A stretch of DNA of 64,000 nt, taken from assembly GCA_030265395.1 (NCBI GenBank), contig JARFYF010000094.1:19706512-19770511 (forward strand), read 5' to 3'. The notes below the pieces were generated by a model. It was not told where the DNA came from. It did not search any database and saw only the letters and a program-made list of their open reading frames with translations. Of the stretch, positions 16,405 to 62,959 are shown in pieces. Position numbers and translations under genes: made by a program. Each line of letters begins with the position of its first letter. The first letter of the stretch is position 1. The stretch comes from Rhina ancylostomus. Taxonomy: Eukaryota.

Positions 16405-17250
16405 TTGGAAATCTAAAACAAAAGTAGAAAATGCTGGAAATACTCGGCAGGTCAGGCAGCATCTGTGGGAAGAGAAACAAGAGTTAACATTTCAGGTTGG
16501 AGACTCCTCATCAGAACTGAAAAGGAGACAGGAAGCTTGTAAAGCTGCAGGGAGGGAGGAGGAGGGTAAAACGGTGGTGAGCATGATCTGGTCAATGAGT
16601 GAACGGGACCCGTCAGAACAGAGACAAAAGAACGTGAATTCCAGAGCAGGAGGACAGGCCCAGCAGGTCAGGTTGGTCATGTTCTCCACTCCCAGCGAGA
16701 AAAAAAAAGGAGGGAAAAAAAGAAGCGGAAATAAAACAAGCTGAGTTTATATCACAGATGGATGACTGATACAGACCGAGAAATCAAGTTACCTGAAGTT
16801 GTAGAATTCAATACTGAGTCCAGCAGCCTGCAACGTGTCCAGTCAGAAGATGAGGTGCGTTACTCATGCTTGCACCGGACCTCACTGTGACTGTACCGGA
16901 GGCCACGGACTGATAGGTCAGAGTAGGAGTGGAATGAGGAATGAAAGTGTCGGGCAACGGGAAGCTCAGACTGAATGCAGGTATTCTGCGAAGCCCTCAC
17001 CCAGCCTGTGTTTGGTTTCTCCAGTGTAGAGGACACCACATTGTGAACACCGAATGCAGTTCACCAGATTGGAAGAAGTGCAAGTGAATCGCTGTTTCAC
17101 CTGGAAAGATTGTTTGGGCCCCTGAATGGTGGGAAGGGAAGAGGTGAAAGAACAAGCCAGCAGTTGTAAGAGAAAGTGCTATAGGAAGAGGGGTGGTTGG
17201 TGGGAATGGAAGAGTGGTCATGTGGAAGGTGTCGGAATCCCATGGAACAA
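16405..17250 (-). mobile_element. Penelope-like element 3' part: GIY-YIG endonuclease remnant plus pLTR
   Basis: Minus frame FTSSLPTIQGPKQSFQVKQRFTCTSSNLVNCIRCSQCGVLYTGETKHRLGEGFAEYLHSV (about 17147-16970); pLTR at 16405-16520. Confidence 0.9.
16481..16519 (-). ncRNA. Minimal type I hammerhead ribozyme motif in pLTR
   Basis: Minus strand CAGUU-CUGAUGA-GGAGUCUCCAACCU-GAAA-UG-UU-AACUC. Core intact, stem I AGUU/AACU, stem II weak. Confidence 0.55.
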
Positions 17251-17589
17251 GACCATTATTGGAAAGTGACACTATGTGGCAAGCTACAGAGAAAGCCTAG
17301 ACGTGAGAAGGATGCCGGACAGCTGAGCTTGCAGCTGCTGTCTTTGACTGCTTAAGCAAACACTGAGAAAGGCTTGAAAATTTTGAGGAGGCAGCTGCAG
17401 ATAATTGAACACTTTTCCAAGAGCAGTGAACCTGCATCCAGTGTAGGAATGCTTTGAAACAGCTCAGTGCTCACTAAAGGCCTTGATCTCGAGATTCAAT
17501 GCTTGGTGGAGGGGCTGGATTTTGGTGGTTTTGAAGCTGGATTGACTACAAAGTCCTCAATTGCTGATGTTAATCATGTTATGGAAACA

Positions 17590-17795
17590 AGCAAAAGGGT
17601 GGTGGGTATATGCCAAAGGAAGCTGAGGTGGTAGGTACAATTACAATGTTTAATAGATATTTGGACTGGTTCATGGATAGGAAAAGTTTAGAGGGATATG
17701 AGCCAACTGCAGGCAAATAGGATCTCAGGAAGGCACTTTGGTTGGCATGGGGGAGTTGGGTCAAAGGGCCTACTTCTGTACTGTATGATCCTATG
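17590..17795 (+). mobile_element. CR1 3' terminal fragment
   Basis: ggtaggtacaattacaatgtttaatagatatttggac...gttgggtcaaagggcctacttctgtactgtatgatcctat. Confidence 0.8.
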
Positions 17796-17975
17796 GACAA
17801 GGGAGTTGTGAATAGAATGGTCCCCGTGAAATGCTAGATTGGGAGGAGAGGGGCAGATGTGTCTGTTGGCTGAATCTTTTGAAAGCTGGTAGAAATAAAG
17901 AATGATTTGTTGAATGCAGAGGCTGGTGGGAGGGAAGGCGAGGACCAAGGGAACTTTATCCTTCTGTGTTTGAGA
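17796..17975 (-). mobile_element. Penelope-like element RT-to-endonuclease linker fragment
   Basis: ORF 17688-18017 has KDKVPLVLAFPPTSLCIQQIIL...HICPSPPNLAFHGDHSIHNSLVH, compare PLE 'xPLVLTYHP...IFPxPPxxAFRRxxSLRxxLV'. Confidence 0.8.
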
Positions 17976-18090
17976 ATGAGAAGTGTTTAAATTTATCCTT
18001 GTGATGGATTGAAGCATTTGCTGCTGGGGAGGGAATTGGGCGGGGTGGGGAGAAGGTATTATTCAGGTACATGAAGAAATTGAAAGCTGT

Positions 18091-18330
18091 ACTCACCCTT
18101 GCTACCCTTGTTGATTCATTCAAACATTTTCTGCAATGAATTCAGGACCAGTGGCCTGACATTCCCAGAACTACTGAACTTGGCCATCTCTCTTCGGGGC
18201 AGATGTATATCAGTCTTTGTAATTTTCCTGCCACTCATCTGAAAGAGTACATCTCGGCTCAACCTTACCTATTCCACCAACGACAATAACATCCTTTTCT
18301 TACATGAAAACAAAGTGGAAGCAGCAGGAA
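18091..18330 (-). pseudogene. Harbinger Myb/SANT-like DNA-binding gene remnant
   Basis: Minus strand LVE*VRLSRDVLFQMSGRK...REMAKFSS, frameshift, WS*IHCRKCLNESTRVAR, then donor gtgagt. Compare 'LVxxVxxRRDVLF...WxEVA...RTWxQCRKRFNDL'. Confidence 0.6.
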
Positions 18331-18399
18331 GAGGTGAATGACTAAGTGAAGTGTCCTGGGATCAGTTGATGGACAGCACTTCCATTGACTTTCTAATGT

Positions 18400-18730
18400 T
18401 GTAAAGAAGCACAAACAAAATATGACACCGCATCACAGAAGTAGATATTAGTACAGAAGACAAAAGGTTTTGTAAGAAGGGTTGGTTTAATGAATGTTTT
18501 AAGAAGAGGAAGTGTGATGGAAAAACCAAGAAGTTTAAAGATAAGATTCCAAACCTTAGGGCCATACCTATGAAAGACATGGATACCAATGTATTAATTC
18601 AGGAATGGTCTAGAGGCTGCAATTAGAGGAAAGCAGATGATTCGGAAGATTGTGAGGCTGAAGAAAATTGAAAATAGGGAGGGTGGAGAGTGATTTGAAA
18701 GGATAAGAAGGTGAATAAGTGGGAAGGTGT
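18400..18730 (-). mobile_element. Old L2-type LINE 3' fragment
   Basis: Similar to 37510-38050 (gattccaaaccttagggcc vs gattccagagtggag); consistent with an L2 'PxLWNxLP...FKxxLK' region. Confidence 0.55.
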
Positions 18731-18786
18731 GTTGTATGTTGTCAACCACAGGGCAGTCAAAGGGTCAAAGATTGTGCTTTTCACGT

Positions 18787-19414
18787 GGTATTGGTATTGA
18801 TTTATTATCATCACATGTACTGAGATACAGTGAAAAGCTTTTGTTTTGCGTGCCATCCAGACAGATCATGCCATACATAATTACACTGAGGTAGTAAAAA
18901 GAAATCAAAATGCAGAATACACTGTTACNNNNNNNNNNGTAGACAAATAAAGTGCAAGGGGCCACAACGAGGTAGATTGGAAGATCAAGAGTTCATCCTT
19001 TAGCATATAAGAGGTCCATTCAAGAGTCTGATAACAGCAGGATAGAAGCTGTCCTTGAGCCTGGTGGTATGTGCTCTCATGCTTTTGTATCTTCTGACCA
19101 ACAGGAGAAGGGAGAAGAGAGAATGACTAGGGTGGGTGAGGTCTTGATTATGTTTACTGATTTCCCAGGGTAGCGGGAAGTGTAGACAGAGTTGGTTTGC
19201 TTGATGGACTGGGCTGCATTCATAATTCTCTGCAATTTATTATAGTCCTGGGGAAGAGCAGTTGCCGTACCAAGCTGTGAGACATCTGGATAGGATGCTT
19301 TCTGTGGTGCATCTATAAAAACTGGTAAGAGTCATCAGGAACACACCGAATTTCCTTAGCTTTTGGAGGAAGTAGAGACGTTGGTGTGCTTTTTTGGCTG
19401 TAGCGTCCATGTGG
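18787..19414 (-). mobile_element. Rex1/Babar-type LINE 3' end (second subfamily)
   Basis: ORF 19240-19464: HMDATAKKAHQRLYFLQKLRKFGVFLMTLTSFYRCTTESILSRCLTAWYGNCS; (caatac)n tail. Confidence 0.9.
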
Positions 19415-20438
19415 AAGTCTCTTGGAACTCGCAAGATTGTTAAATGCTGTAAGTGATTTGGCATTTTGAAAGTGCAAATGGAAGTGATTTAGGACAGAGT
19501 TTCTTCCGGGGGAAATCACACAGAGATGTAGGGTTGTAGGGGAAGATAAGTCATGTGCATGCAGAGCAATANNNNNNNNNNNNNNNNNNNNNNNCTATTT
19601 GTGAGAATGACATAGTGCTTGTAGCAGGGTCACATGGGTTGGCAAGTTCAAGGGAGAGACTATGAGAGGGATTAGGGTGCATGTATAATGGAACAGGCAG
19701 GCAGTGATGAACTAGGGATGAAGGCTGAAACTATGGTGATTGTGAATAGAGAGACTGAGGAATGAAAACAATAAAGATATTACAGTAAATTTTTTTGAAT
19801 GGGTGGTAATGTGGAGGTATTGGGGGAAGAGTGTGGAACAAAACAAAATGATCAAAGGAGAAAGAGATAGAGATGTATGGGGCCATCTTAAAGATGTGAT
19901 GTAATGACGAGAGCAACTGAAGAGGTGTGGGGGCAAGTAGTGGAAAGTATAACCCAAATGAAGAGCCTTCAGTTAGGAGGAATGTATCATTATTCCCCAG
20001 CTGATCCTAAACCTCCAGGGTGGCTTTAGAAAACCAGTTCATTACCGTAGAAAGTCTTACTGCAGCAATCTTACAGAACAATCTGTCAGATGGGATTGTA
20101 ACCTTGATTTAAACAGTGTATTTTTGTTTTCAATAGGCCTCGGGGGTGGGGGGGAGGGGGGAGGTTTTCTGTAAATTATAGTCAGAAAGTGGCTGGGTTT
20201 CCTGTTGCCCATGTGGTAGCTTCGAGCCCTTTGGTCAAATGCTAATGAATCCCAGTGGTTAAAATGTCATTTATTCACGTCTGTTCTTAAGTTGAACATT
20301 GTTTAGAGTCAGGTTTTTTAGAGAATTGTTTGTTGTTCCTCAGCATTTCTGACTTTGATAAAACATGCAGATCTCTCATTTTGAAACTTGGTAAGACATC
20401 CATATTAATTTAGGCTGACACCCCAGTATGGTACTAAG

Positions 20439-21000
20439 CCACCATCCACTCAGCCATGTCCATCATAGGTTCAGATCTCCCCACCACTGAGGACATCTTC
20501 AAGAGGTGATGTCTCGGGAAGGTGACCTCTGTCATGAGGAAGGGTCCTGACTCGAAATGTTGACTGCCTCCTTTTCTCTACGGATGATGCCTGGCCTGCT
20601 GAGCATCTGCAGTCCTTTGCTTCTCATCTATCATTAAGGACCCCCACCATCTAAGCCATGCTCTCTTCTCATCTTGCCCTCAGACAAGAGGTACAGGAGC
20701 CTGAAGACCCACATCTTAAGGTTCAAAAACAGCTTCTTCCCTACTGCCATCAGGTTCTTGAACCGGCCCGAAAAACCCTAATTCTACCTCAGACTATATT
20801 TCCCTCATCTTGCACTGATGTTGTTAGGTTTATTTTTGTTTACTAGGTCATGTAAGTTATGTTTAATTTATGTTAATTTAAGTTCATGTAATTTATGTCT
20901 GTCATGTTTGTAAAGCATTGTGCTGCTGCTGCAAAAAGCTAATTTTCATGGCATTTATACCTTGGGTAGATATGCCCATGAGCAATATACTTGAACTTGA
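20439..21000 (+). mobile_element. Rex1/Babar-type LINE 3' end
   Basis: Coding remnant IIGSDLPTTEDIFKR*CL...IIKDPHHLSHALFSSCPQ / RYRSLKTHILRFKNSFFPTAIRFLN; ends acttgaacttga. Confidence 0.85.
20536..20626 (+). mobile_element. Penelope pLTR fragment with partial hammerhead motif
   Basis: (t)gaggaagggtcctgactcgaaatgttgactg...gatgcctggcctgctgagcatctgcagtc, flanked by tctgtcat (20528-20535) and tctatcat (20627-20634). Confidence 0.75.
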
Positions 21001-23376: not shown

Positions 23377-24053
23377 GACACAAGAAACCTGCAGATGCTG
23401 GAAATCTGGAACAAGAACAGAAAATGTTACTTGCACTCAGCAGGTTCAACAATGGTGGGGGAGAAACAGAGTTGGAAAGGTGAGAAAGCAAGAGTATTTT
23501 AAGTTGTAAAGAGGGGGTGGGGTGGTGAAGACCACAGAGGGAATGTCTATGATAGGGTGCAGATCAAAGATATTATGCAACTAGGAAACAGAATGGAACG
23601 GAAAAGTACATCATATCTGTGGAGATAAAGAAAAGAGGGTAATTACCTGAAACTGTTAATTTCAAACTTAGGTCCCGTGGGCTGCAAGGTACCCAGACGG
23701 GAAGCTCATGGTGTCCTTGCACACTGAATAGAGATGTTGAGCAAAGTGGTCTCTCCATCTGTATCATTTTCTCCAAAGTGCAAGTTACCATATTGTGAGC
23801 ATTAACTTTGAAATCTTACAATGGAGGAAGTGCAAGTAAATTGCTGCTTCATTTGGAAGGACTTTTTGCCAAGGCATAGAAGGTTACTGACCAAGTGGTG
23901 GTAAATGGGATCAGTGCAGATGGGTAATTTATGGTCAGTGTTAGACATGGTGGGTCAAAGGGTCTGTTTCTGTGCTGCATGACTTGATGGATATATGACA
24001 ATTTGGATCCATGGCTAGTGGGAAGGGAAGAGGTAAAAGGTTAGGTATTGCAC
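23377..24053 (-). mobile_element. Degraded Penelope-like element 3' part
   Basis: pLTR end gacacaagaaacctgcagatgctggaaatc; ggaggaagtgcaagtaaattgctgcttcatttggaagg and gtgggaagggaagaggtaaaagg align to the GIY-YIG region at 17070-17150. Confidence 0.8.
23868..23995 (+). mobile_element. CR1 3' UTR nested in Penelope GIY-YIG region
   Basis: ggtaaatgggatcagtgcagatggg...gacatggtgggtcaaagggtctgtttctgtgctgcatgac. Confidence 0.75.
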
Positions 24054-24401
24054 AGGAAAGTTTTAATTTGCTTTATGCCTTTTTTCTGCAGTCCAACAAT
24101 CCCCATTCAAATGATAGGCTTGTGATCCTGCACCATGTCTAACCAGGCCCAGGGGAATTTCAGTGACACTGTGGCTGGACACCATGGGGAATCCACCAAT
24201 GTAGCACAGATGGGAATTGACCAGCAGAGTTTGGTCAGTCAGCTCAGCACTTCTGCATTTCCATACAGAGCAACTGGCAAAATCCTGGTCAACACCCCCA
24301 GAAAGTTTTCATCAAACACAGCCCAAGATTCAGACTTTTGCTGATCCATCTAGAGTTTGCTATTCTGCAGACTGCATGGAGATTTTACACAGAACACTAT
24401 T

Positions 24402-27021: not shown

Positions 27022-27362
27022 CGTCACTTTGATACTACTGTTCCATTCTAATTACATTTCAGCAAATCCCATCCATTGGTGGAATCATTCTCTTCCATTG
27101 TAGTGTACATTTATAAGGCACTGAACTGTCTTATACTGACATTCCTGACCGTTTTTCTGTCTCATTGTGTGAGATTACAAAAAACACTTTATGTGGCTTT
27201 AAATTCACAAAACTCATCTCTGGTAGAACATCTACTGATGATCCTTGGTGTGTGTCCTCTGTGCTGAAATGTTAGCCACTCACATAAAGTGACAGAATCA
27301 CAATGAAGTGGAACACAGGCAGAATAGCAATTTGAAAGAAGTCAGGCAGGTTTCCAAAAAGA

Positions 27363-27605
27363 GACACAAGAGACCAGAAGTGGTGGAATCTGGAGCAACA
27401 AAGAATCTGCTGGAGGAACTCAATGGGTCGAGCAGCATTTGTGGGAGGAAAGAAATTGTCAACATTTCCAGTTTAAACCTTGCATCAGAACATAGAACAT
27501 AGAACAGTACAGTACAGAACAGGACTGAGTTTACTATTTCTTTCCTCCCACAGAGTCTGCTCCACCCACCAAGTTCCTCCAGCAGATTCTTTTTTGCTTT
27601 AGGTT
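27363..27605. repeat. Palindromic Penelope-pLTR-derived element
   Basis: Inverted arms aagaatctgctggaggaact / agttcctccagcagattctt and tgtgggaggaaagaaat / atttctttcctcccaca. Confidence 0.85.
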
Positions 27606-27959
27606 TCCAAAAAGAATCCATGAGATACATGTTTGGACACTCTCCTCAGACTGTACACCCAGTGTCCATATTGGGTGTGCACCTGGCACAACTCATTAAT
27701 GTGTAGCACCTCACAACACGCTAACAAGTCTGAAATATGGTAATGCTTATTAGTGATTCCTTGAGTGTAATGCAATACTCTAATAATTATATGCATATTC
27801 ATCTTGAAGTTATAATGTACAGACATAGGCAACTGTTAAAACTGCAGCTCCAACCTGTATTTTCCATCCTGGCTCCTCCTCTGTCCTCATATTTGACATA
27901 TTCCTAAATTCAGTTTAGAATATATGGTCACCTAATGTGAGGATGTGGTGGTTGGATGC

Positions 27960-35380: not shown

Positions 35381-37509
35381 ATGAAAACTGCAAAAATACA
35401 AAATGAAAAGCTATTGCCCACAGGCAAATCCATAGTAACTGGCTGAAGTACACTTATTTAGATGGCTTAATACATGGAAATTTGTATTATTTATGCATTC
35501 CAAATAATTTATTCAACGCAACAACTTCTGACACTTAATTACTTCATGGCATTGATTAATGTCTTCTAATCTTCAAATAAATTAATGGCATATAATTTTT
35601 TTTAGTTCTGTCACCTAGTTAGTAATTAACAGGCACATAATAGCACACTGCCAAGTGTTATTAACTAGGTTGAACCATTTATCCTCAGTTGTGGCTGATG
35701 AAAACGATAATCTCTGGTTGTCAGCAGCCTAAATCTTTCCCAAAAGTCTATGAACAGTGTAGAAGAGAAGGGTCAATAGAAGTAGTGCTTTGGGGTGACC
35801 TTCATCAGTCCCTAATCTGTCATTTTGTCTCTTGGGCAATGGTCTTCTTTCTCTTTCTTTTAAATGAATAACCTTGTTTAAAGTCCCATCTGTGCCTCCT
35901 GCTCTATCGTTGGTGGTAGTAACACCATTCTGAATCATGTATCTATAATAAGGCTCATTATTATAAATCACATTGAACTGACTGATGCAAAATTGTTGTT
36001 GCACATTACTGGACATTGTCCTGGCCACAGCACTGATTTTTATTCACAGGTAAGTTGACCTCCACAGTTGCACCATTGCATTGAAACAAAATGTCAACTC
36101 TACATGACAGTATGGATAGATGCATACATGACGGTAGGCTGTATTCAGCCCTTACTGATTTCTGATGTTTCGAAGTAAATTGAGATATTGAACGTCAGTG
36201 GGTTGATTCATTCTAAATGCTGCATTTTGTCTCATTTTCCACTGGGAGCATGTGCATGTATATATCAAGGTGGTTTTACAGAAAGTGGCCTCTGGGAGGT
36301 GGTTATGAGATGACTGTCCCCGTCTCCACAGATGAGCATTTGTCCTTTAGCACCTTCCACAGAGGCACAAATGGGATCACAAATTCAATAACTTCCTGTT
36401 GGAACCAATGTGTAACAAGGTCTAGTTTTTGGTTACAGTTCTCTTTTGACAAAACATCCGATTGTGTTGATTGATAAAATCTGTAAGGGGAAGGATAAAT
36501 ACAAAGTTTTCAAGATGCATACTTACATCTATATGTATGTGGAATAAACTCTACCTACGTAGTTAGATCTGCTAATAGGGTAACTCATCTCCCTTTGCTG
36601 TAAAGACAATTGAATAAATTTTTAAAACATGCAATTTGAAAGTTCGATATTAATAAAGCAGTTCAGATTTAAGGACAACAAATCCAAACCCAATCAAAAT
36701 GATTAAGTCTGCCATTGTCAGCAGTTGTTCTTAAAGATGAATCCTGAAACACAACACTGAACTTAAGCAAAAACTGTTGAGTGGATCCAACAATCTTTTG
36801 TTTCCTAGCTTTTTCTTTGACACAATGATGAATAGATTTCATTGTTGGTACAAATAAGGTTCAGCTTGAAAGTACGAGGTGTGTGGGTTTCTGACATTTT
36901 CCATTCCAAGATATATTAACTCCTGCATGGCAGAAGTACTGCAGTGATATATGTGCAATGCAATAAAGCCATCCCAATTTACAATAGTCAAAAAAACTTC
37001 TGGGGTCTCAATTACATTTTATGGAAGTTTTTCCCTCCTCTTTTGGAGACATCAATTTTATGTGGCCTCTTGAAATAAAAGAATAATGTTCTGGAGATAT
37101 CCAGCAGCTCAGGTAGCATTTGCAGAGACAGCAAAACACATATCACTATTCAGAGAGATGATATTTTTTGGGCCCCTTATTGCCACATTGGGTCAAATGC
37201 TGCCCTTTATCAAAGGCCAGAATTGAGCTCTTTTGTAATCTGCTACCCTGCAGTTGAAGTGGACCTCACTGTTACAGAGAATGTACTAAGCTTTCATGTT
37301 TAAATGCATCCAATCTATCATCTTCAACTCTTCTGCATGTTTATCACTTCACATTTTTTTCTGATCCTTTTATTGGAATTATGAGGAGAAGGAATAAGTT
37401 GTTTTGTTTAAACTGGTGGGACGCAATAAGAGTGTTTCAGAAGGGAGTTAAGTGTATACTTGAAAGGGGAAAACCTAAAGAGCTGAGGGGAAATTGCACC
37501 AACATCAGC

Positions 37510-38639: not shown

Positions 38640-39075
38640 AGACACAAGAAATTCTGCAGATGCTGGAATGTGGAGCAATGCACAAAAAGTGCTGAAGGAA
38701 CCCATCAGGTCAGGCAGCATCCATGGAGGGAAATAAACAGTCCATGTTTTGGGCCAAGACCCTTCATCAGGACTGGAAAGGAAGAGGGCGGAAGCCAGAA
38801 TAAGAAGATGGGGGGAGAGGGAGGAATACATGCAGGCAGNNNGGTAGTGGGTGGGGGAGGGGGAGAAGATGTAATCAGCTGAGAGGTGATAGGTTGAAGA
38901 GGCTGAGGGTTGAAGAAGAAGGAATCCAGTAGGAGAGGGCAGTGGACCATGGAATAAAGGATGAGGGAGGAGAGGAGATGGGCAGGTCATCAAGGCAGGA
39001 GAAGGGATATATGGAATAAGGGAAGACAAAGGAGTGATGAGGGAAAGAAAAATAAGGAGTGGGGTTACTGGAAGT
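38640..39075 (-). mobile_element. Penelope-like element 3' UTR plus pLTR (young subfamily)
   Basis: gacacaagaaattctgcagatgctggaat...gggaaataaacagtccatgttttgggccaagacccttcatcaggactggaaaggaagaggg, a purine-rich UTR, ending ggggttactggaag. Confidence 0.85.
38738..38775 (-). ncRNA. Hammerhead ribozyme motif, predicted inactive
   Basis: CAGUC-CUGAUGA-AGGGUCUUGGCCC-AAAA-CA-UG-GACUG. Perfect 5-bp stem I and good stem II, but G12 is A and position 17 is G. Confidence 0.6.
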
Positions 39076-41337
39076 ATTATGTGTATGTTAACCCCATTTT
39101 GACATCCCAATCTGGTGTTGTCCAGCCTTTTATTTAAGCAAGTAGTCTAATACATTATCAAATGTGCTTGGTAATTGCTTCCTTTAAATGAAAGAATAAA
39201 TCCCTATTCATACACTGAACCATATGTTCAAAATCTTTCCTTCTCGTGTGAACACACCTGAAGTCCTAGAGGAACTTTCATGTTTGTCATGCTTTGCCTC
39301 AATGAACCAGAACTCCAGATATAGGTTTGTCACCTGGTTCAGAGCATGCTTGGTTTCATGATCATTGAGGTCTTCACAGTGAAGCCAAGGTTTACAAATT
39401 TGAGTTCCTGGTTATTTTACAAACTTGCTGCCAAGCATCTGTTTATTGAAATGACAGTTCAACAAATTAGATTTGGAAATAAGTCAATGTGGTCCTATCC
39501 TACGCGACAAAATACAATAATTACCCTAAATTTGGACAATACATTTGTGGATTGTTCCAAGTGTTGCTTCATGTATTGACCACACATTGTTTTGCAAGAA
39601 TGGACCAGAAAAATTTGCAACATTAGTCCATAGTTTTCTGGAAAATTTTGGTATTACGCCATCCTAAGAACAAAGGAGTGCATGTTTTACAAGAATATTT
39701 GCATGTAACTAAATTACTTTGGTTTTATCTCAGTATATTGCTAACAAATTAATGCCAGTGGGGTTCTTTGCAAGTTTCAGAATTTGATGCCATTGTCAAG
39801 CTTAGCATGGAAAACAGAGTAACTAAATCAGATTGAGGAAACTCCAGCCAATTATTGTAGCTACCTAACATTTCTTGCTTTCTTTAAGAGATAGTTTCTC
39901 ACCAATTGGAAGTAAAGTGACTAAACTTGGAGAAAATACAATGAATCACAGCAACAAAAATCTTAATAAAGCTCTCAATAAAATACTTTTAACATTTTCA
40001 TATCTTTAAAGTTCAGGAGGTTTCCATGAATCTGTATTAGTTCCATTTTAGCGGAGCTGGAGGACTGCATGAGTATAGTAAGCAGAATTATGGGCTGCCA
40101 CTCAGCAGGAAGGGAATTGAACATAATGATAATTACATATTATGTGAAATGAGGTTTCTCTTTGGCTCTTGTGTAGGGTTTAGGTTAAGATGGTGAAGTA
40201 ATGAAATCAGCACAGCTAAGTTATGGTTTTTAAAGGTACGCATTCCAAAACTGAAAGGGCACCAGAAGGGTGACAAGCTCTTCCAGCTCATCTGAAATAT
40301 TAACGTGAGATCTAAGTGCCAAATTTGGGTGAACTGCTTGCCTTTGTCTTCCCATGTAATTAGTGTACATACATTATGTCATGTCTTGGATTTGTTTATT
40401 GGGAAGGGCAATCACTCACTTTGGTTTAAAATGCAATGTGCATGTCACTCTTGAAGAAAGCTTCCACTTCTTTACAAGAAGATAGCAATTACAAAAGATA
40501 GCAATTTGTGACAACTCCACTGATTAAACACTAATGTTGACAGGCACATAACATTCTCAGAGAACTCAAACCTATAGTATTCACATGAAAGATGCTAATA
40601 AGGTACTCTTGAAGAGTTCTTAAATTTCATCATTGTAGTGCCATGACAGCTTAACAGCTGATAAAAGAAAATTAAATTTAATGTCTGGGCCAGGGTCAAA
40701 TAATAATTTTGAATCTGTTAATCTTTGTTGAAAGGCAATATTTTCCATTACATAGATTCTGAACTAATGGCAATAACCACACCCGTCCGGGGGTTTTAAA
40801 GCCCCCATAGGTGGGAATACCAATCCTGCCAGATACTGGAATTTTATTAAAGGTTAAATTCCTTAATGCTTGTTAGCAAGACAGGAGGAAAAGGATAGGG
40901 GTATTTACAATATTGTTTGCTATTATTTTATTGAACTATTTTTATTATTAGTTTCAACAATGTTAGATCTCCATATGAAAAGCTTAGTTTTCCTTTGTCC
41001 AAGGCCCTTCCTTCCCACCTCTCCCACCAATGACAGCAGGAACAAGCAAGAGAGATCTGATGGACACTTCTTAGAAAACAGAGGTCTTTCTCCATCCTTC
41101 CCCACATCCCTGCCACCAACCATTACACGGACTATCCCTTCATTCCTAGTGACTTCATTTGGACTGCAAATGTGAAAATGAGTACAACTTTCAGCCAATA
41201 CTCTAGCACTTGGATAATGCCAGAGATCAGAGACAATATACCATTAAAAACTCCCAGGTTTAACCTAGTGGAAGTCAGGATAGTTTGCTGTTTATCACCT
41301 CACCTGTGATAACAAGCTTAACTTCCAAATTGGATGT

Positions 41338-41745
41338 AAGAACAGAAAATGATGGAAACACTAATAGTTCAGACAGCAAGTGTGGAAAGAGAAACAGAGC
41401 TAATNNNNNNNNNNNNNNNNNNNNNNNNNNNNNNNNNNNNNNNNNNNNNNNNNNNNNNNNNNNNNNNNNNNNNNNNNNNNNNNNNNNNNNNNNNNNNNNN
41501 NNNNCTAATGTTTCAGGTTAAAGACTCTTTCTCAGAACTGGCGAAAAGACGAAACAATTTGGTTTAATTTTAAGTTGCTGAGAAGGTTGGGGAGGGATGG
41601 ATAAGGACAAAGGGAAGATCTCATTTCTAATGAGGAGTCTTCAACCTGAAATGTTAAAACAATTTTTCTTTCCACTGACGCTACCTGATTTACTGAGCAT
41701 TTCCAGTATTTTCTGTCTTTATTTCATACTTCCCAACATTTGCAG
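41338..41745. repeat. Inverted pair of Penelope pLTRs (older subfamily)
   Basis: acagaaaatgatggaaacact...atgtttcaggttaaagactc vs gagtcttcaacctgaaatg...agcatttccagtattttctgt; internal N gap. Confidence 0.75.
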
Positions 41746-42039
41746 AAAATTGGTTTTAATTTACTTCAAATTGGATGTACTGATACAGAAGTGAAAGCTC
41801 ACTTTCAAACTTCTGCAATAAAGGGCATCAATGTACATATGTCAAAGGAAACTTTTCATGTCAATTTAGAGCTTAATGCTTAATTTTCAAGTTGTTGCAT
41901 TATTTATGTCACAATGACCCATGACAGGTTTTAGAGAAAATGGGAAATTCCAAGGTCAGCTCTTTTGTACCATTGAGCATCAAAATGGGAGATAATTTTC
42001 TGATATAGGCTGTCAGAATACAAATCAAAAAGTGGGAAT

Positions 42040-42410: not shown

Positions 42411-43659
42411 TGTAAAATCTGGAATTGTTAGTTTTAAAAATAATTCCAGTATTAATTAATACAACTCTCGGTCAACAATCATGTATNNNNNNNNNNNNNN
42501 NNNNNNNNNNNNNNNNNNNNNNNNNNNNNNNNNNNNNNNNNNNNNNNNNNNNNNNNNNNNNNNNNNNNNNNNNNNNNNNNNNNNNNCAACAATCATGTAT
42601 AGAGAAACAGTTCAAAAAGAAAAAAGCTGCATATGTACAATACAACAGAAATGGCACTTCACCACAATACGTTTCCTGCTTTGCCTCAAATTCCTTTACC
42701 AGTTATTCTAATATCTTAACATTGCCGACCAAGGCATTTGATACACATGCTCTATGTATGCAATGCTGTGCAGAGGAACTTCCGGGCTTTAAAGGAGAAA
42801 TCAATTGTTTCTTGCTGAAATTAATATCGGTCACAAATTTCCTTCCATTCTTCTGAGACAAAATGGGCAAATAAGTTATAAGTTCAAACACTTATAGTTC
42901 ATGTGGAAGAATAAAAATCAATGTAAGGTCACTTATACGCAGTGCATTCCATCTGTTCTCCTACATCACATGATACTCTGGATTAGGAAGGTCATCCCAT
43001 CCACATTAATTCTCCCATCAAGAAAGATTCTTAGTGCCTAGTGCCACCTCAAAATGCTTCTGCAGTGATTCAGTTTCTTGCATCAGTGACTTAATCTGAA
43101 AATCTATTCCATTTTGTTAATCACTTTTAGGTAAAAGGGAATTTGTTTATGATCAACTGGCACCAATTTCTGAATCCAAGTTACTAATATAAATAAAAAG
43201 AAACAGTGAATCCAACACTCACCCTTGAGTCAGATCTTTTTTCATCCTGAAGTGTTGGTTCTAAAAAGAACCTACTGTTCTCTACCCTTTGGCAATTTCC
43301 TTTCCTTTCACAACATTAAGCCTGAATCCTGGATTTTTTGTTGAAATTCTTTTGGTATGATAGTGGTAGCAACTTGTATATTGATGCCCAGATTTTAGAA
43401 CCAATTACTGGCATCTGATATAGATGGATAACACTGCAACCTGTTGATATTTAATAGCCTTACAGAAAATAAGGTGTGCAGCAATATAACAATTTCTTAT
43501 TTATATTGGAACTACACAATATAAATCATTGGTGTATAAGTTTCACATATATATACCCTTTATTAAAATCTTGTAGAACTGGATATATTGAACATGGTGA
43601 TGTTCCAAGAGATGTGAAAAAAGATGTGTCAGCAGAAGTAGATAAGAAGGTGATAAATG

Positions 43660-44545
43660 GTCTTTCTAGGCTTCATTAGCTGGGGCATTGAATAAAAGAA
43701 TCAGGAAGTTATGGTACCGTTTTATGAAACATTCATTGGGCCACAGTTGGAATATTGTGTGCAGTTTGGTTGTCATACTGTAGGAAGGATGTGATTGCAC
43801 TGGAGAGGATGCAGAGGAGATTCACCAGAATGTTGCCCAGGGTTTGGAGATTTGATAGGCTGGGTTAATTTTCCTTGGGGTGGACCAGCCTGGAGTGGGG
43901 NNNNNNNNNNATACCTGAATGAGGCATCAAAAATTATGAGGGACATTGGGAGGATAAATAGTCGAAACTTTCCCCCACATAAGATTAGATTTCTTTATTA
44001 GTCACATGTACATCAAAACATACAGTGAAATGCATCTTTGCGGAGAGTATTCTGGGGGCAGCCCACAAGTGCCGTCAACTCTTCCGCCGCCAACATAGCA
44101 CGTCCTCAACTTCCTAACCCGTACGCCTTTGGAATGTGGGAGGAAACTGGGGCACCCAGAGGAAACCCACGCAGACATGGGGAGAATCTACAAACTCCTC
44201 TCAGACAGTGGCGGGAATTGAACCTGGGTTGCTGGCGCTGTAATAGTGTTTTGCTAGCTGCTACACTACCGTGTAAAAAAAAACTAGGTTTTAAGGTAAG
44301 GGGCAAGAGGCTTAGAGGACATCGGAGGAAGATAACCTTTTCACCTAAAGAGTGATTGGACTCTGCATGACCAGGTGGCTCTTGCAACATTTAAGAACTA
44401 TATGGATGGGCACTTGAATTGCTGAGGCATAAAAGACGATGGGTCAATATATAGTAAATGGGATTACTGCAGAGGGGTAATTGATGGTTGCATAGACATG
44501 ATGGCCAACGGGTATTTTTCTGTGCTGTATGACCCTATGACTCTT
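43660..44545 (+). mobile_element. CR1 3' part interrupted by a V-SINE
   Basis: PQLEYCVQF...RKDVIALERMQRRFTRMLP; tail tctgtgctgtatgaccctatgactct. Confidence 0.88.
43981..44273 (-). mobile_element. V-SINE, full length
   Basis: Same head, V core and tail as 13944-14243; B box caggttcaattccc. Confidence 0.9.
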
Positions 44546-50436: not shown

Positions 50437-50543
50437 TTCTGCAATAAAAAGAGAAAATGCTGGAATTACTCATCAAGCCAAGCAGCATTTGTGGAGAGAG
50501 AAACAGACAAAGTTTCAGCCTGCTGATCTTTCATCAGAATCTG
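50437..50543 (-). mobile_element. Solo Penelope pLTR fragment with hammerhead-like core
   Basis: gaaaatgctggaattactcatcaagccaagcagcatttgtggagagagaaacaga; minus strand CUGAUGA-AAGAUCAGCAGGCU-GAAA. Confidence 0.7.
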
Positions 50544-52114: not shown

Positions 52115-52767
52115 AGACGGTTAAAAGATGAGTTTTCAAGACATTAAGGGGAACTGACAATGTAGATAGAACCTATTTCCACTGGTTGGGGTGTAAAAGT
52201 TATAGAATCATTATTTAAAATTTGATCCAGCCTTTACAGGAATGAAGTTGCCAAACATTTCTGTATGAAAGAAGAGGTTCTTTGTTGCAAATCACTGTTA
52301 GTTGTTTGTTTGAATTTTAGCCTTTTTTTTAGATAGGGAGGTATTAAGGATGATCAAACAAAGATGATTTTGGTCACAGTTAATAATGATTTCATTATTC
52401 ATTATCTGGCACAACAGACTTGAGGGGTGAAATGTTCCCAGGTTGCTAATTCCTAACCCATGAATCTTAAGGTAAATACTGGCGCTTAGTTATAGAGTCA
52501 CAGAGCACAGAAACAGGCCCTTCGACCTATCCTGTCCATGCAGCCCTTGTACTATCTACATTAATCCTATTTAGCTGCATCGTTTCTGCTTCAACCTGCT
52601 GGATCTGCTCCCTCTTCACATTTCGTGGATCACTTCTAATCTTTCTGTTCTCCATGTTCACCCTGTGGCCAATCACTGCTGCATATTCCTGGGTTCGCTG
52701 CCCCTTCACTCTGAGACCCCTGCTCATGGTTCACCCTTCATGGTCCACTAGGCCGTCACCCTCTCAG

Positions 52768-52875
52768 GTCCACAGAAGCCCCATCCTGCTGTGTCCCTCT
52801 TGGGTTCACAGGTGCCCTGTCCCGCTGTGTCCATTTTGGGTCCACAGGAGCCCCATCCCACTGTGTCTGTTTTGG
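52768..52875. repeat. 36-bp minisatellite, 3 copies, in a pyrimidine-rich degenerate tract
   Basis: Units start at 52768, 52804 and 52840 (gtccacaggagccccatcccactgtgtctgttttgg type). Confidence 0.85.
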
Positions 52876-53580
52876 GTACGCTTGAGCTCTGCCCTGCCGA
52901 GACCGCACTGGGTTTGTCAGATCCACCCTGGACATAGTAGGATGGGGCTCCTGCTTCTCCCTGCTGCCTACTACCCCTGTGCCCCATGTGGTTCATTCTC
53001 GCCTTGCTTTCCCTTCTCTGCATATTCATGCTTCCACCCAATGTGCTGGCTCGACAACCTGCCCCTCTTTCACATTCTGTGGACCACTTCCATCACCCTG
53101 TTCTCCATGCTTCATTCTGAGGTCCATCACTTGTATATTCCTGCATTGGCTGCCCCTTTGCTCTGTCCATCCCTGCTCTGGGTTCACCCGACGTGTTCTG
53201 CTGGGCTGTCACCCTTTCACATCTGCTTGAGCTCCACCCTCCCATCCATTTAACATAAAAATGAAGCCCATATATGGTTTTGCACCTGAAACTGACACAA
53301 ATTGAGTAGCATGTGCAAAAAAGATTAACACTGGTGAGGTAAAGCTGGGGAATGGAGGAATGGAGAAATCCATCTGGGGAATGGCAAGGGAGGAAGAGAG
53401 TGAATGGGAGAAGAGTGAGCTGAGTTGTGGATCCATATGAAGATAAATGTAAAAAGACACCTTGGAGGCAACCATTCACATTGCACTGAACCTGGCCAAG
53501 CTATGTGGATGGGGTTCACTTCTGCCTCTGCTCATTTTCTGCTGAAGTAGGGAGCAGGGTCATGGAGCAGGCATTAAGCA

Positions 53581-53799
53581 TTCCGCAGATGCTGGAATCT
53601 GGAGCAATACACAAAAAGTGCTNNNNNNNNNNNNNNNNNNNNNNNNNNNNNNNNNNNNNNNNNNNNNNNNNNNNNNNNNNNNNNNNNNNNNNNNNNNNNN
53701 NNNNNNNNNNNNNNNNNNNNNNCAAAAAGTGCTGGAGGAACTCAGCAGGTCAGGCAGCATCCATGGAGGGAAATAAACAGTCGACGTTTCGGGCCAAGA
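53581..53799 (-). mobile_element. Young Penelope pLTR, truncated inside the ribozyme motif
   Basis: gctggaggaactcagcaggtcaggcagcatccatggagggaaataaacagtcgacgtttcgggccaaga; minus strand keeps GCCC-GAAA-CG-UC-GACUG but lacks CUGAUGA. Confidence 0.85.
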
Positions 53800-56999: not shown

Positions 57000-57232
57000 A
57001 AGGAGAGAAAGATGGAAATTCTCAGCAGGCTTGGAAACATCTGAAGGAGGAACAGAGTGAATGACACTGGGTGATGATCTTAATGAGTTTTCACTATAAA
57101 TATTCTGATGAAAGATCATCAGTCTGAAATGTCATCTCTGTTTCTCTGTCTATATTGCATCATGACCTGCTGAGTGTTTCCAATATTTTTTGACCTTATG
57201 TTGGATTTCTAGCATCCGCAGCATAATGCTTT
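57000..57232. repeat. Old palindromic pLTR-derived element
   Basis: ggaaattctcagcagg / cctgctgagtgtttcc arms; gatgatct / agatcatc near centre; plus-strand CTGATGA at 57105-57111 and GAAA at 57126-57129. Confidence 0.7.
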
Positions 57233-57239
57233 TGTGATC

Positions 57240-57830
57240 AATAGGCAGAATTGCACTGACTGATAGCTGCTGGTTCCACAGGGAGCTGTTGGCTATCAGC
57301 CATGTTGGTCGCAGCATGTCTCAGACTTCTGTGTGGCCAAATACAGAAGCTCAAGATGAGCTAGAGGTCAGGTGGCAAGCTCATCTGAATGAAGTCGCTA
57401 ATTGTNNNNNNNNNNNNNNNNNNNNNNNNNNNNNNNNNNNNNNNNNNNNNNNNNNNNNNNNNNNNNNNNNNNNNNNNNNNNNNNNNNNNNNNNNNNNNNN
57501 NNNACTCAGCAGGTCAGGCAGCATCTGTGGAAGGAGAAACAGTAAATGTTTTGGGTCTGGGACTCTTCATCAGAACCAGTTCTGATAAAGCTTCTGGACC
57601 CAAAGCCATACTGTTTCTCTTTCCACAGACACTGCCAGACCTGCTGAGTGTTTCCAGCATCTTCTGATTGTGTTTCAGCTTCAAAGGCTGCTAGGGCTTC
57701 ATGGTCAGAGCCTCAGGCTATGATTCCTAAGACTTCATCTTTCTGACCATCTCAGGCGTGGAGAGTTAGTTCTTCTGGCCTTCTGCATCTTATGAATGAC
57801 ACCGCAGACAGGCACCGTGGGCTGCCCAAC
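57240..57830 (+). pseudogene. Possible second HARBI1-like Harbinger transposase remnant
   Basis: IAAGS/GAVGY/HV (about 57263-57306; compare IAGFPxVxGAIDxxHV) and RLLGLHGQSLRL*FLR (about 57685-57732; compare WLLGDKGYPLxxWLMTPLR). Confidence 0.4.
57504..57678. repeat. Palindromic pLTR-derived element
   Basis: actcagcaggtcaggcagcatctgtggaaggagaaacagta ... tactgtttctctttccacagacactgccagacctgctgagt; centre tcatcagaaccagttctgataa. Confidence 0.85.
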
Positions 57831-58369
57831 CCATGGGCTGAATTCAGGAAAATCTCCATTTTGTAAGTTTTCTTTCTATATTTAATCTCAAACAGAACAA
57901 AAATAGCACAGTTCAGGAATACTGTTTTCATAATGAATAATTTTCTCTGGATGCCACCAACAGTACAAAACTTTGATCTATTAACATGAGGCAACATGTG
58001 CGGCTGGTGGGATTCTTGGCTTTCAATTTATTGGAAAAATTGTAATGCGAATTTTACTTTGATTCCCACTGTGTCTGTCTCAGTTTCATGCCAGCTTTCC
58101 TTAATGTTTTAAGTGTTCAAGGGTTATATCACTAATCTCTTGAAGTTTGAGAAAGGGTGAAGTTTGGGGCAGATGAAATCATGGATGTTGGAAGGGTCAA
58201 GGGAAACTAAGGCCACTGTCTATGTGGGTTTTAAATCTGAGGTGAGTGACCAAAAATGAACGTTGTCGTTTGTTAACTGGGGGAAGAGAAAGAACTGGCT
58301 TGAGAAGCTGAGAGACATGGATCATTTTCCATCCCCACCCATCCAGCAGCTGAAAAGGAAACTCCACAC

Positions 58370-58500
58370 TCTTCTGTGTGGGGTTTGCACATTTTTCTCA
58401 TAACTGTGTGGGTTTCCCTTGGGTGCTCTGGTTTCATCTCAGATTCCCAAGCAGGGAGCTTGATTGGTGAATGTAAGTTACACCTATTCTAGGCAAGTGG
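58370..58500 (+). mobile_element. Older V-SINE fragment
   Basis: tctgtgtggggtttgcacatttttctcataactgtgtgggtttcccttgggtgctctggtttcatctca (V domain). Confidence 0.7.
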
Positions 58501-58679
58501 TAGGAGTGTGTTGTGAATGTATCTGGATCAGTTGTCATTGATGACTAGCTGGCAGTGTGTGCGGGCTGGGTTTGAGGTATGCATCAATGCAAGTGAGTGA
58601 GTATGTGTGGAAACATATGAGTGGTTTAGGTCCTGAGTGAGGGAGATGAGTGACAGGGGTGCAGTGAATGGAGCAGTAT

Positions 58680-58915
58680 TTGAAATTGGTGAATCATTTG
58701 TGGACTAGAGTAATTGAACTGACCATGACAATATATGTGAGCTTATTGAAGGCCTTACATCATTACCTTGAGGTCTATGTCTTGAGACCATTCCACAGTT
58801 TTCACACACCTCTGAAACACCTGCTGGTGCTTGACATCTCTCCTACTTTGCACTTCCTTCACCAAGCTGTCCAGTGCAGTGTCAGAGAACTGTGGAGCCT
58901 GCTTTCTACTTGCTG
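58680..58915 (-). pseudogene. Harbinger Myb/SANT-like gene remnant
   Basis: ORF 58755-58961 RKQAPQFSDTALDSLVKEVQSRRDV, compare 'RAPRFSDxxLExLVxEVxxRRDVL'; downstream HK*FTNF, compare RKRFNDL. Confidence 0.55.
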
Positions 58916-59929
58916 TGTCTTGAATACTTCCTAGGTAATCCTTGGTGTCCAGTCCACTCATCCAAATCTCAGTGCCCCAGTCTTCAAAACAACCCTGGTT
59001 AACGAATGGAGGTAATTGCTTCTTTGGATATATTTGTGATGATGCACAAGATGGAAATCAACACGTTGCAGGATGTTTCTTGTGACATGCATCAAACCAT
59101 GAAGAGAGTTGGAGAGGCTGTGAGTTTTCTGGAACCTACCAGATTCGAGGAAGAACTTCAAAGGATGTTGGTAGCCCACGTGTGGAAATTGAATTTGCCA
59201 CGATATAAGGTGCCAGGGCAGAATACCAGGGTCTGTGATGGGTTCCAGCACAGCAGTTTCCATAGTGTGAAAAGATGCTTTGAAAGGGCAATTGGACAGC
59301 GTATTCAAAACTCGACTGGGTTCATGACATTGATGAGAAGGTGTCTCCCCATAGAGTTCTAGTGCCAGCATTTGAGCAGGTTTTGGACACATGGTGGCAT
59401 TGGAACCATGACAAAGGCTGCCGTTAGGTGGTCCCTCTGGCTCAGGAGTTTCTGAGTCACATCATCTTTTTAGTCTTCTAAGGAATCTCTCCAACCATAC
59501 CCCACTCATTTGCATCTCTACTAAGCAGCACCTTGCAGGAATAAAAGTTTAGAAGCAGGAGCATCAAGGAGAGACATAGCATTAAGGTGCAAATATTAGC
59601 CATTTTTTTGTCACTGCCTTGTCATAAATATATCTGAACAAAGTTTGATCACATGGAGTTAACAGAATATGCTTATTTGGGACCAGAAAATGGTGAACTA
59701 GCCATCTATTGTATACCAGAAATAGTCTGAAATCTTTGACAGTGAAGGATTTTGCAATGATACATAATTTTGGGATGCAGCTGTTGCTGATAAGACCATC
59801 ATTTTTTGCCCATTCCTGGCATAATGAGAAGATGGCAATGGTCCTGTTCTTTCAACTAATGCAATACCAGTAGGTAAACAGTTTCAGGGTGTTGACCCAG
59901 AAAATGAAGCAAGATATGCACCACATAAG

Positions 59930-60448
59930 GGTTGGAATTGGAATTGGCTTATTATTTTCACTTGTACCAAGGTACAGTGAAGTACTTGTCTTGCATACCA
60001 TTCATACAGATCAATTCATTACACTGTGCATTGAGGTAGTGCATTGAGTAATCAAAGGGACTTTTATTATGCTGGCTGCTTTACTGAGGCAGCGAGAAGT
60101 ATAGACAGAGTCCATGGAGGGGAGTCTGGTTTCTGTGATGCGCTGGGATGTGTCCACAACTCTCTGCAGTTTCTTGTGGTCACGGGCAGAGCAGTTGCCA
60201 AACCAAGCCGTGATGCATCCAGATAGGATGCTTCTTATGGTGCATTGATAAAAGTTGGTGAGTGTCAAGGGGCACATGCCAAATTCCTTTAGCCTCCTGC
60301 AGAAGTAGAGGCACTGGTGAGCTTTTTTGGCCATGGCGTCTACGTGCTTGGACCAGAACAGGCTATTGGTGATGTTCACTCCTAAGAACTTTGAAGTTCT
60401 CAACCCTCTCAACCTCAGCACCGTTGATGTAGACAGGTGTATGTGCAG
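59930..60448 (-). mobile_element. Rex1/Babar-type LINE 3' end with internal deletion
   Basis: ORF 60011-60499 KFLGVNITNSLFWSKHVDAMAKKAHQCLYFCRRLKEFGMCPLTLTNFYQCTIRSILSGCITAWFGNCSARDHKKLQRVV; lacks the segment seen at about 24500-24755. Confidence 0.92.
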
Positions 60449-61896
60449 TTTCTGTATAACTTGAAGATGATGCTGTTCCCCTGCAGTTTCTACACGCATC
60501 CTTCGAGATATAAGAGGTTTGCTGCAGCACTCTTGACAATTGGATGAGTTTTGTCAAGCTCTGATATGATGTATAGGTTGCAGCTGAATGATCCCTTCGT
60601 GTTTATTTTCTGTAGGGGGTTGATACAATTGAATGGCTTGTTTGACCACTTCAGGAAGTAATTTAAAATCAACCATGTTGATGTGGGACTATAGGACTTG
60701 CATAAGTACTTGAAGGGAAAAAATTGCAGGGCTTGGAAAAGAGCCAGGAAATTGCATTAACTGGATTGGTCTCCTTGTACTGTTACAGCTCTATGATTCT
60801 ATAATTATATACAATGAGTCTAAATCAGACAAGGGTGCCATTCTTATAGCACCGTGAAGCTCACTAGCCACCTTTGGGTACTCAAAAGCATATAGGAAGA
60901 TGCCGAAAGTCAGCGGCTGCTGTCATGATTTCCTCTTTCTTCCACAGTTTTGCAGCCTCGTCCAGTGCAATGTTCATAAATGAGTGAATTGACAAGAACT
61001 GATATTTATGAACAATGTTCTCTGTGGAAAAAAAACCTGAAGTCGTTATGCTTTTTTGCATGAGGTGAAAGCAAGTTTTTGATGGTGCATTAATCCATAA
61101 TTACTGCTTATTGACTTCTCTGCCTCTAAAGAACTCATTTACATTTTAACATTTCAGCTAATTATTTAAAAATTCTGTACATTTTGACATAACAAATTGT
61201 TTTCATTTTATTTTATAAGTAGTTTGATATTTCAAGTTCTTTTTCCATATCATAATATGTACGGTCTATTTCATTTGTGCACTTGGAATGTTTAGAATGC
61301 TTGTTTAGAACTTCCTGCTTGCTGTTTGTAATAATTTTTGTTTGATTAGCTGCACAACCAGCTTGATAATATCACTGTTGCCAAATGGCAGAGATTCCTT
61401 AAATAGCACCTATGCCCAATGTTAAGTAAAGTTGGGAAAGGTAACATCTGTGCCATCGAGATCTTTGCTGGAAGTTTTCATCAAGGTCAGTACCGACTGC
61501 AGGATCAGGGTCCAAGAGATGTTCGGAAGGTCTTTAGTTTCAGTTATTTTCTTTACTGTTTTAGTTAAGTCACCACAAGACAAATGTGACCTTGGTGTTG
61601 CTGGACTTCAGAATGGAAATTGAGCAGGGACTCTCACTAATGATTGCTAATCATAAGCTCTTCCTGGAACATGCACGTGCTTGGATATTAGATAATGCAT
61701 AGCTGGGATGAATCAAGGTGCCTCCCTGCCCAAGGTTACACATGAAACATGTCACTTGAGAATAGGAAACAGAAAGGTTCTGGCACTTGGAAATCTGCAT
61801 TCAAGACAATGCAACAGCAACAGGAGATAATAAGAGAAGGGGAATGAAAATGTTGGCCAAAATAACTTCTAAATTACACTTTGGGGTCCATTTTGC

Positions 61897-62095
61897 ATGT
61901 CCCTGGGCCAATATTTAAACACAATCAACATCATCAAAACAGTTTTTCTAGTCATTATCAGATTCCTGTTGGTTGGAGCTTGCTGTGCAGATTAGCTACA
62001 TTATCCTTGATTGCATTGACTACACTTCAAAAACTTCTTGGCTTTGGCTTATTTTGACATCATGAAAGGCATTGTATCCATGCAAGTCTTCTTTT
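61897..62095 (+). mobile_element. Deu-domain SINE 3' half
   Basis: ggccaatattta...aaaacagtttttctagtcattatcagattcctgttggttggagcttgctgtgca...tgactacacttcaaaa...catgaaaggcattgtatccatgcaagtc. Confidence 0.75.
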
Positions 62096-62728
62096 CAATT
62101 CCAATTTTCCTGTTTATTGTGCATCATTAAAAGTGTATTCAGATGTAAATAAATGAATTAATAAATGGCACTGCATCAGTGAACAGTTGTTGATGAAGAT
62201 CTTTGATGAATGTTAAAATTTCATACTTGATTTTTTTTCTAGTTGAAAATACAGAGATTTTTGAAATGATAAAATATAGCATCAAAGGATAGCCATTCAT
62301 GTTTTAAATATTTAGTTATATATTCCTAAAACTGCCAAAAGTCATAAGGATACAATAATAGATGCATTTATTCTGCATCTTCATTGAGGAACTGTGCTTC
62401 AAGGCTGACTGGATGAGAGACATGGTTGCAACCCCCAGAGACGTCCTCAGAGCATGGTCTCATTTGGTGAGCATACCTTATGCTTCAAATGTGTACTAAC
62501 ACCAAGCCACTAAAGGCAGTAAAAAAAACCCCACAAGTTTAATTAAAAATTGTTTGATAATCTGTTCCTGAGCAGGTAAGCTACAGAATGCTGCAAAAAT
62601 TCAGGCCTCAGGTAACAGATTTAATTGGCGCTAACCATGCTTTTGGGAGACTGACAATGTCAGTAATTTTAATTATCTTTCTTTTTAAAACAAATTCAAC
62701 CTGGGGACACAGATGGTTCAAGAATTCA

Positions 62729-62959
62729 GACAGACACACAAGAAATTCTGCAGATGTTGGAATCTGGAGCAATACACAAATAAAAAGTGTTGGAGGAACT
62801 CAGCAGGTCAGGTAGTATCTATGGAGGGAAATAAACAGTCGATGTTTCAGGCCGAGATCCTTCATCAGGACTCTCAGCCCGAAACATCGACTGTTTATGC
62901 CCCTCCATAGATGCTGCCTGACCTGCTGAGTTCCTCCAGCACTGTTTTTTGTGTATTGC
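62729..62959. mobile_element. Young palindromic pLTR-derived element with 11-bp TSD
   Basis: About 90-bp inverted arms (62767-62857 / 62872-62961) around a 14-nt spacer; direct repeat tcaagaattca at 62718-62728 and 62960-62970. Confidence 0.92.
62836..62872 (-). ncRNA. Minimal type I hammerhead ribozyme motif
   Basis: Minus strand AGUC-CUGAUGA-AGGAUCUCGGCCU-GAAA-CA-UC-GACUG. Stem I AGUC/GACU, stem II AGG/CCU, cleavage triplet AUC. Confidence 0.65.

Follow-up and report, generated by a model that had tools for sequence, protein, structure and literature searches.

Decayed minimal type I hammerhead motifs in the pseudo-long terminal repeats of an abundant Penelope-like element in Rhina ancylostomus

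Penelope-like elements (PLEs) carry minimal hammerhead ribozymes (min-HHRs), described by Cervera and De la Pena (2014, PMC4209133) with the consensus U-rich NNN CUGANGAH G..C GAAAN palindrome NUH. They are type I motifs located in the pseudo-long terminal repeat (pLTR) of elements that encode a reverse transcriptase (RT) and an endonuclease (EN). Single min-HHRs are inactive, dimers and multimers are weakly active, and GUU is frequent among the published examples (PMC4209133). In the anole, the PLE hammerhead requires the help of protein, and the element can insert in vitro without a working ribozyme (Frangieh et al. 2024, PMC11167929). These and the other published systems below are cited from the consulted sections of each source. 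Here, we analysed 64,000 nucleotides of the Rhina ancylostomus assembly GCA_030265395.1 (contig JARFYF010000094.1, positions 19,706,512 to 19,770,511, forward strand; hereafter the window), in which a reading of the sequence alone (the sequence-only reading) had noticed hammerhead-like motifs at 11 sites. We consider it very probable that these motifs are decayed pLTR 3' ends of an abundant EN-bearing PLE whose source copies carried a minimal type I hammerhead, likely able to cleave only when dimerized or assisted by protein, and that most copies arose from uncut RNA.

The hammerhead is real, correctly identified and of the published kind. The family motif equals the PLE consensus and shares with it the type I fold, one extra nucleotide before G10.1, a short helix I, a loop-less A-CG-U helix III, a U-rich flank, GUC or GUU as NUH, thousands of mostly solo copies with some opposite-strand pairs, and a place in the pLTR of an RT-EN element (locus L089; window 16406-17975) (PMC4209133). 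This supports the sequence-only reading, which had proposed a minimal type I hammerhead in a PLE pLTR with one nucleotide added after A9 and helix III reduced to a palindrome. Helix II has 4-5 bp here and 7-8 bp in Schistosoma min-HHRs, two subfamilies depart from the consensus (U4A in subfamily C, C9 in subfamily D), and part of subfamily A has A10.1-U11.1 in place of G10.1-C11.1 (PMC4209133). We found no shark, skate or Callorhinchus entry in the consulted part of supplementary file 2 of PMC4209133, and a preprint sampled one chondrichthyan (bioRxiv 10.64898/2026.07.22.740005, consulted sections). A literature search mostly outside subscription journals listed neither work on PLE hammerheads of sharks or rays nor any on cap-derived G in PLEs. 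The ribozyme itself adds a cartilaginous-fish family to the published class and changes little, while its natural variants (U4A, C9, A10.1-U11.1, GUC/GUU) form a panel for asking whether PLE spread requires cleavage.

Using a profile built from the window's own copies, we detected 19 pLTR-family matches in the window (18-19 per 64 kb) and none in the 864 kb of sample plus window when reversed. Each of the 11 sites holds a copy of the family, as the sequence-only reading had claimed, and 7 further tail-only or truncated matches complete the total. In 80 evenly spaced 10-kb stretches (800 kb) we found 149 copies, or 186 per Mb, a density of the same order as in the window; by extrapolation, the genome holds about 400,000 pLTR fragments. 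The 34-base young motif, reconstructed earlier by combining copies, is a natural sequence and no artefact of mixed copies, with 175 exact occurrences (loop left free) in the 2.2-Gb assembly and 0 for the reversed pattern. The older type, with AGUU/AACU in stem I, an intact core and ACGU, gave 418 genome matches (control 4), and patterns for two stem II lengths gave 1,590 and 54 matches (controls 0 each).

The pLTR family belongs to a PLE with an RT and a GIY-YIG endonuclease. Locus L089 contains a 396-aa uninterrupted stretch in the order RT-thumb-CX4CxxC-GIY-YIG, read directly from the open reading frame (ORF), and on the same strand a pLTR follows about 200 nt downstream. PF00078, PF26215 and PF01541 are found in the homologues of L089, of which the closest come from sharks and rays, and a motif similar to the L089 linker is present in L090. 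In the window, a broken GIY-YIG endonuclease remnant of the same element (16790..17180, -) lies upstream of the pLTR copy at 16406 on the same strand and has 72% identity over 54 aa to the L089 ORF; a remnant of the RT thumb and RT-EN linker (17781..17975, -) has 48% identity over 61 aa. A Pfam scan missed these window remnants. A 52-aa piece of the element gave 21,817 first-look candidates in the genome, among which the four longest apparent open frames were rejected as runs of N.

By the motif criteria of Craig et al. (2021, PMC8557442), the element would be Neptune-like: it shares with Neptune EN+ PLEs an RT with C-terminal GIY-YIG, a CX2-5CxxC linker and two cysteines between the GIY and YIG boxes (the CCHH cysteines), and its copies resemble theirs in 5' truncation and in an inverted truncated copy at the 5' end. 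In contrast to those elements, only a partial ORF was recovered here and the grouping is by motif. The anole element PAc belongs to another clade (Penelope/Poseidon) without the linker zinc finger (PMC11167929).

To describe the variation of the family, we collected 513 profile hits from fetched loci (6 loci dropped as duplicates), including 351 that were not picked by pattern; 167 of the latter had an anchored hammerhead and 155 a tail sufficient for clustering. We clustered these copies by their tail columns alone and merged the six resulting clusters into five subfamilies. Subfamily A (67 copies) is the oldest, with U2.1-A1.1, a longer stem II and GUU. Subfamily B (14 copies), the least diverged, corresponds to the young type recognized earlier and has a canonical core and GUC. 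Subfamily C (25 copies) has A at position 4 in 19/25 (U4A), subfamily D (30 copies) has a C preceding the extra A, at position 9, in 28/30, and subfamily E (19 copies) has A7 and GUU. The young and old types of the sequence-only reading are thus both real, but its 11 sites span four subfamilies (A, B, D and E); likewise, its cut after GUC applies to the young family, whereas the old family and E carry GUU, and its 4-bp stem II in the young family does have four pairs, of which the fourth is a U-G wobble.

The core CUGANGA...GAAA...NUH is kept in A, B and E, by majority and in exact natural copies, and deviates in C and D, which together make up 55/155 sampled copies (for example L203:1501-1534, L211:1501-1534 and window 27456-27493). 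The extra A before 10.1 is present in all subfamilies; the pair 10.1-11.1 is G-C in B to E and G-U or A-U in A. Each of the five subfamilies has GAAA, ACGU and the three inner pairs of stem I as its majority state, and the loop-less palindrome ACGU occurs in exact copies of every one, although it has decayed to CA, TG or TA in 118/155 copies. Outer pairs of stem I are disrupted in D, E and part of A.

There is genuine but sparse covariation, with a single event in stem I and, in stem II, one path through G-C, G-U and A-U. The pair 2.1-1.1 is C-G in 57 copies, U-A in 51, C-A in 17 and U-G in 9 (p 3e-13); position 2.1 is equally tied to non-partners (loop II length, p 2e-20; first tail base, p 9e-17), and its covariation with 1.1 therefore counts as one event. 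The compensatory change from AGUC/GACU to AGUU/AACU proposed earlier is accordingly a real C-G to U-A change, but only a single event at the level of subfamilies. The pair 10.1-11.1 is G-C in 53 copies, G-U in 57, A-U in 23 and A-C in 3 (p 7e-4), and 10.4-11.4 shows one-sided change only. Because ACGU is identical in all five subfamilies, the palindrome yields no covariation. A covariation score over the structure pairs reached 0.338 against 0.236 in shuffles (0/500 above), to which we give little weight because its 23 rows were hand-picked and are related.

Intact monomers were predicted to form stems I and II without helix III, and 4/5 paired the core into a long hairpin. The ACGU self-duplex has a computed energy of only -1.7 kcal/mol. 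Folding z-scores of monomers ranged from -1.85 to +0.97 in 8/8 sequences, too weak to be counted as evidence. A scan with Rfam hammerhead models, proposed as a check on the motif, gave no match in the window (up to E 10) or on the intact copy L040, as expected because the motif lacks a monomeric helix III.

Several results weigh against the account favoured here. Pfam on L089 alone gave a weak RVT_1 match (E 0.049), a full-length intact element was absent from the 10 loci fetched for long frames (most of them broken by N gaps), and the clade assignment stands on motifs, not on an RT tree. The covariation stands on one or two events, the minimum-energy structure of two cofolded copies is an extended duplex, not an active dimer, and subfamilies C and D amplified with non-canonical cores (U4A; C9). 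Selection for the fold in source elements, which the sequence-only reading had proposed, is nevertheless likely; selection for efficient cleavage is unsupported because C and D amplified with altered cores and outer stem I pairs are broken.

Most inserted copies are decayed. CpG-type changes account for 159/379 lesions at conserved core positions, with at least one in 125/155 copies, which agrees with the earlier suggestion that inactivating changes fall largely on CpG sites. The change rate is 0.43 in CpG columns and 0.16 in others, the CpG columns being partly defined from the same data. The non-CpG core deviates from the subfamily majority at 0.090 against 0.149 for the tail, a comparison biased in that copies had to align in the core; with this bias of the anchoring rule, the better-kept core fits selection in source elements.

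That individual genomic copies act as host ribozymes under post-insertion selection seems to us very improbable. The genome does hold hundreds of exact copies, and RNA reads of a related species contain related sequence on both strands. However, core and palindrome are retained together in only 3/155 sampled copies and in 0/10 anchorable window copies, and paired copies lie on opposite strands, which precludes a dimer within one transcript. In the same reads, depth is continuous over the cut site on both strands, and we found no position where many molecules begin or end; the library is fragmented, making both observations weak tests. The RNA signal of the related species is passive transcription of many copies.

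The 5' ends of copies do not accumulate at the cut site. Alignments beginning within 3 columns of it number 8/149, close to background, while 76/149 include the whole motif; templates were therefore probably mostly uncut. The anole PAc Poseidon element is similar in its pLTR hammerhead, its insertion from uncut RNA and the lack of RNA ends at the cut, and its reverse transcription starts internally, about 110 nt into the RNA near the 5' part, to which the arrangement here can be likened (PMC11167929). Under the reading that we favour, source elements would have kept a weak, conditional ribozyme; reverse transcription would have started about 100 nt 3' of the ribozyme, often reaching the first bases of helix I; and the inserted copies would then have decayed, mainly at methylated CpG, leaving those in the window inactive.

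Instead of the cut site, 5' ends pile up at the 5' strand of helix I. Element sequence upstream of helix I is missing from 12/55 readable B copies and 10/29 readable E copies, which share a boundary there (the young 5'-boundary sets include pattern-picked copies), and few young copies end within the next 30 bases beyond it. In one run of the related species, read depth falls from about 1,460 to 520 at this boundary. A BLAST count of 5' ends in the unbiased sample was left with 16 young-like copies, a number too small to use.

The boundary bears an extra G. Five bases before C3, long copies have C in 63/67 and G in 0, while short copies have G in 14/39. Genome-wide, 989 young-type matches have a base other than C there (G 443, A 234, T 312), a G:A ratio of 1.9 against about 0.67 in the host, and one base further upstream G:A is 44:56 (hand tally of the first 100 of 308). 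In 30 inspected loci, 14/14 readable G copies were short and 6/8 T copies were long. The window copy with its hammerhead at 62836, in which G precedes the first A of helix I (62869-62873), belongs to this type. An untemplated T before the extra G, suggested by 11/14 loci at first, was rejected since genome-wide it is found in 218/443, for which host T and CpG-decayed C suffice.

A single G at the 5' junction is also known from full-length LINE-1 and SVA insertions, where it is read as a reverse-transcribed 7mG cap (PMC4859970); those are non-LTR elements, whereas the present copies are short PLE pLTRs in which the cap is suggested by counts only. A fixed 5' end with an extra G is not reported in the consulted sections on PAc (PMC11167929). 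The extra G is likely to be a copied cap at a transcription start, and we place an inferred capped start at the A that precedes GUC-CUGA. Three considerations speak against a cap. Old subfamily A has no G excess (G 27, A 32, T 41 in a hand tally covering the first 100 of 168; in 15 short copies from 25 loci, G 4, A 6 and T 5). A splice acceptor would fit the same bases, and the control for a junction bias covers a single neighbouring position.

The boundary sequence is YYAGTY after a pyrimidine tract, which we take to resemble an RNA polymerase II (Pol II) initiator motif and which would presumably also suit a splice acceptor. Tentatively, and with somewhat less than an even chance in our judgement, the 5' strand of helix I may double as a Pol II start, with transcription beginning at the A located four bases ahead of C3, and the short solo and fold-back pLTRs may be run-off copies of capped, uncut RNA with the cap copied as G. 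If so, the genome would be a fossil map of the start site, and the ribozyme would sit at the extreme 5' end, where cutting decaps the RNA. If a copied cap, the extra-G boundary would locate the start and support in vivo the model of internal priming on an uncut template, which rests on one in vitro system.

The same evidence bears on an explanation that we regard as unlikely but by no means negligible, in which the motif is kept mainly for a non-catalytic role at the 5' end (promoter or start, splice acceptor, protein-binding hairpin), with cleavage a mere vestige in most subfamilies. The pile-up at helix I and its YYAGTY sequence fit such a role, as does the spread of C and D despite altered core bases; in D. 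virilis an intron extends up to the 5' end of helix I (PMC4209133), and ribozyme mutants of the anole element still insert in vitro (PMC11167929). Against it, the full canonical core is found in 3/5 subfamilies and GAAA, ACGU and the inner stem I pairs prevail everywhere. Moreover, a natural U4C variant is functional in vivo (PMC3088659, consulted sections), so U4A need not be dead.

The short copies with a common 5' boundary could also form a separate non-autonomous family with its own master sequence, resembling a short interspersed nuclear element (SINE) or a retrozyme; vertebrate non-LTR retrozymes derive from pLTRs (bioRxiv 10.64898/2026.07.22.740005). We think this improbable, as subfamily-diagnostic bases are common to short and long copies in several subfamilies and the nucleotide preceding the extra G is as varied as host flanking sequence (T in 218/443, otherwise A, G or C). 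Unlike non-LTR retrozymes, defined by tandem repeats of which two or more successive units bear a hammerhead, the window copies are dispersed or head-to-head, and we saw no tandem arrays of this unit there. Elsewhere in the genome, two exact hammerheads lie 170 bases apart on the same strand with an N gap between them (L050/L051, G000:C7:74622928-74623131), possibly a natural tandem or an assembly duplicate.

On the ribozyme strand, a pLTR copy has the hammerhead first and then a tail about 90-100 nt long. Among the solo copies of the window, the 3' pLTR end of old subfamily A at 16406..16517 (-) has its hammerhead at 16481-16519 with ACGU changed to AUGU, and a short subfamily E copy at 20529..20619 (+; hammerhead 20529-20566) has C3 and the CG of the palindrome mutated. 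The young subfamily B copy at 38651..38838 (-), with an upstream pyrimidine tract, has the lesions G12>A, ACGU>ACAU and H17>G in its hammerhead (38738-38775). A short old subfamily A copy occupies 50437..50542 (-; hammerhead 50504-50542). The young copy at 53582..53799 (-) is truncated in stem II and has only the 3' half of the hammerhead (53774-53799), retaining GAAACGUC-GACUG, with an N gap splitting its tail. Two fragments have only the tail, one at 23387..23473 (-) with its 5' start near position 1.1 and an old one at 37064..37153 (-).

Head-to-head pairs make up the remainder and number 23 among the 149 sampled copies. The pair at 27348..27615 joins a subfamily D copy with core CUGAUGC (27379-27493, -; hammerhead 27456-27493) to a truncated one (27526-27612, +) and is flanked by a 15-bp direct repeat (27348 and 27601). 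The fold-back unit at 41326..41779 spans an N gap and comprises 41327-41404 and 41502-41540 (-) and a subfamily A copy at 41622-41746 (+), with hammerheads at 41502-41540 (-, entering the gap) and 41622-41660 (+) and a 13-bp direct repeat at 41326 and 41767. The young pair at 62718..62971 bears an 11-bp direct repeat (62718 and 62960); its minus-strand copy (62745-62873; hammerhead 62836-62873) has G directly before AGUC and ACGU>ACAU, and its plus-strand partner begins in stem II. These three pairs, with their direct repeats, match the structure described for PLE insertions, and each was likely inserted as one unit. Two old pairs were also detected, one at 57004..57222 (57004-57062, -, tail only; 57100-57222, +, subfamily A, hammerhead 57100-57138) and one at 57503..57682, in which the hammerheads of both copies (57503-57578, -, at 57540-57578; 57577-57682, +, starting at about 57577) are decayed. 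MiRNA-like Rfam matches in the window coincide with the fold-back pairs and were rejected.

The window contains other repeats and features. Fragments of a different repeat, of LINE (long interspersed nuclear element) type, are present at 60011-60553 (-), 3824-4050, 9282-9507 and 19137-19413; the frame 60014-60553 matches the Pfam model ALKBH8_N (E 1e-7), which presumably also matches LINE ends. Another dispersed repeat, one end of which is tRNA-like, is probably a SINE and has three copies, at 11020-11218, 13957-14198 and 43987-44227. A 119-codon open frame with gene-like composition (59003-59362, +) had no notable Pfam match and no longer homologue. A weak histone stem-loop match at 43232-43277 (-) scored 23.7 bits, under the 34-bit cut-off, and a 36-bp tandem repeat of about four units occupies 52752-52895.

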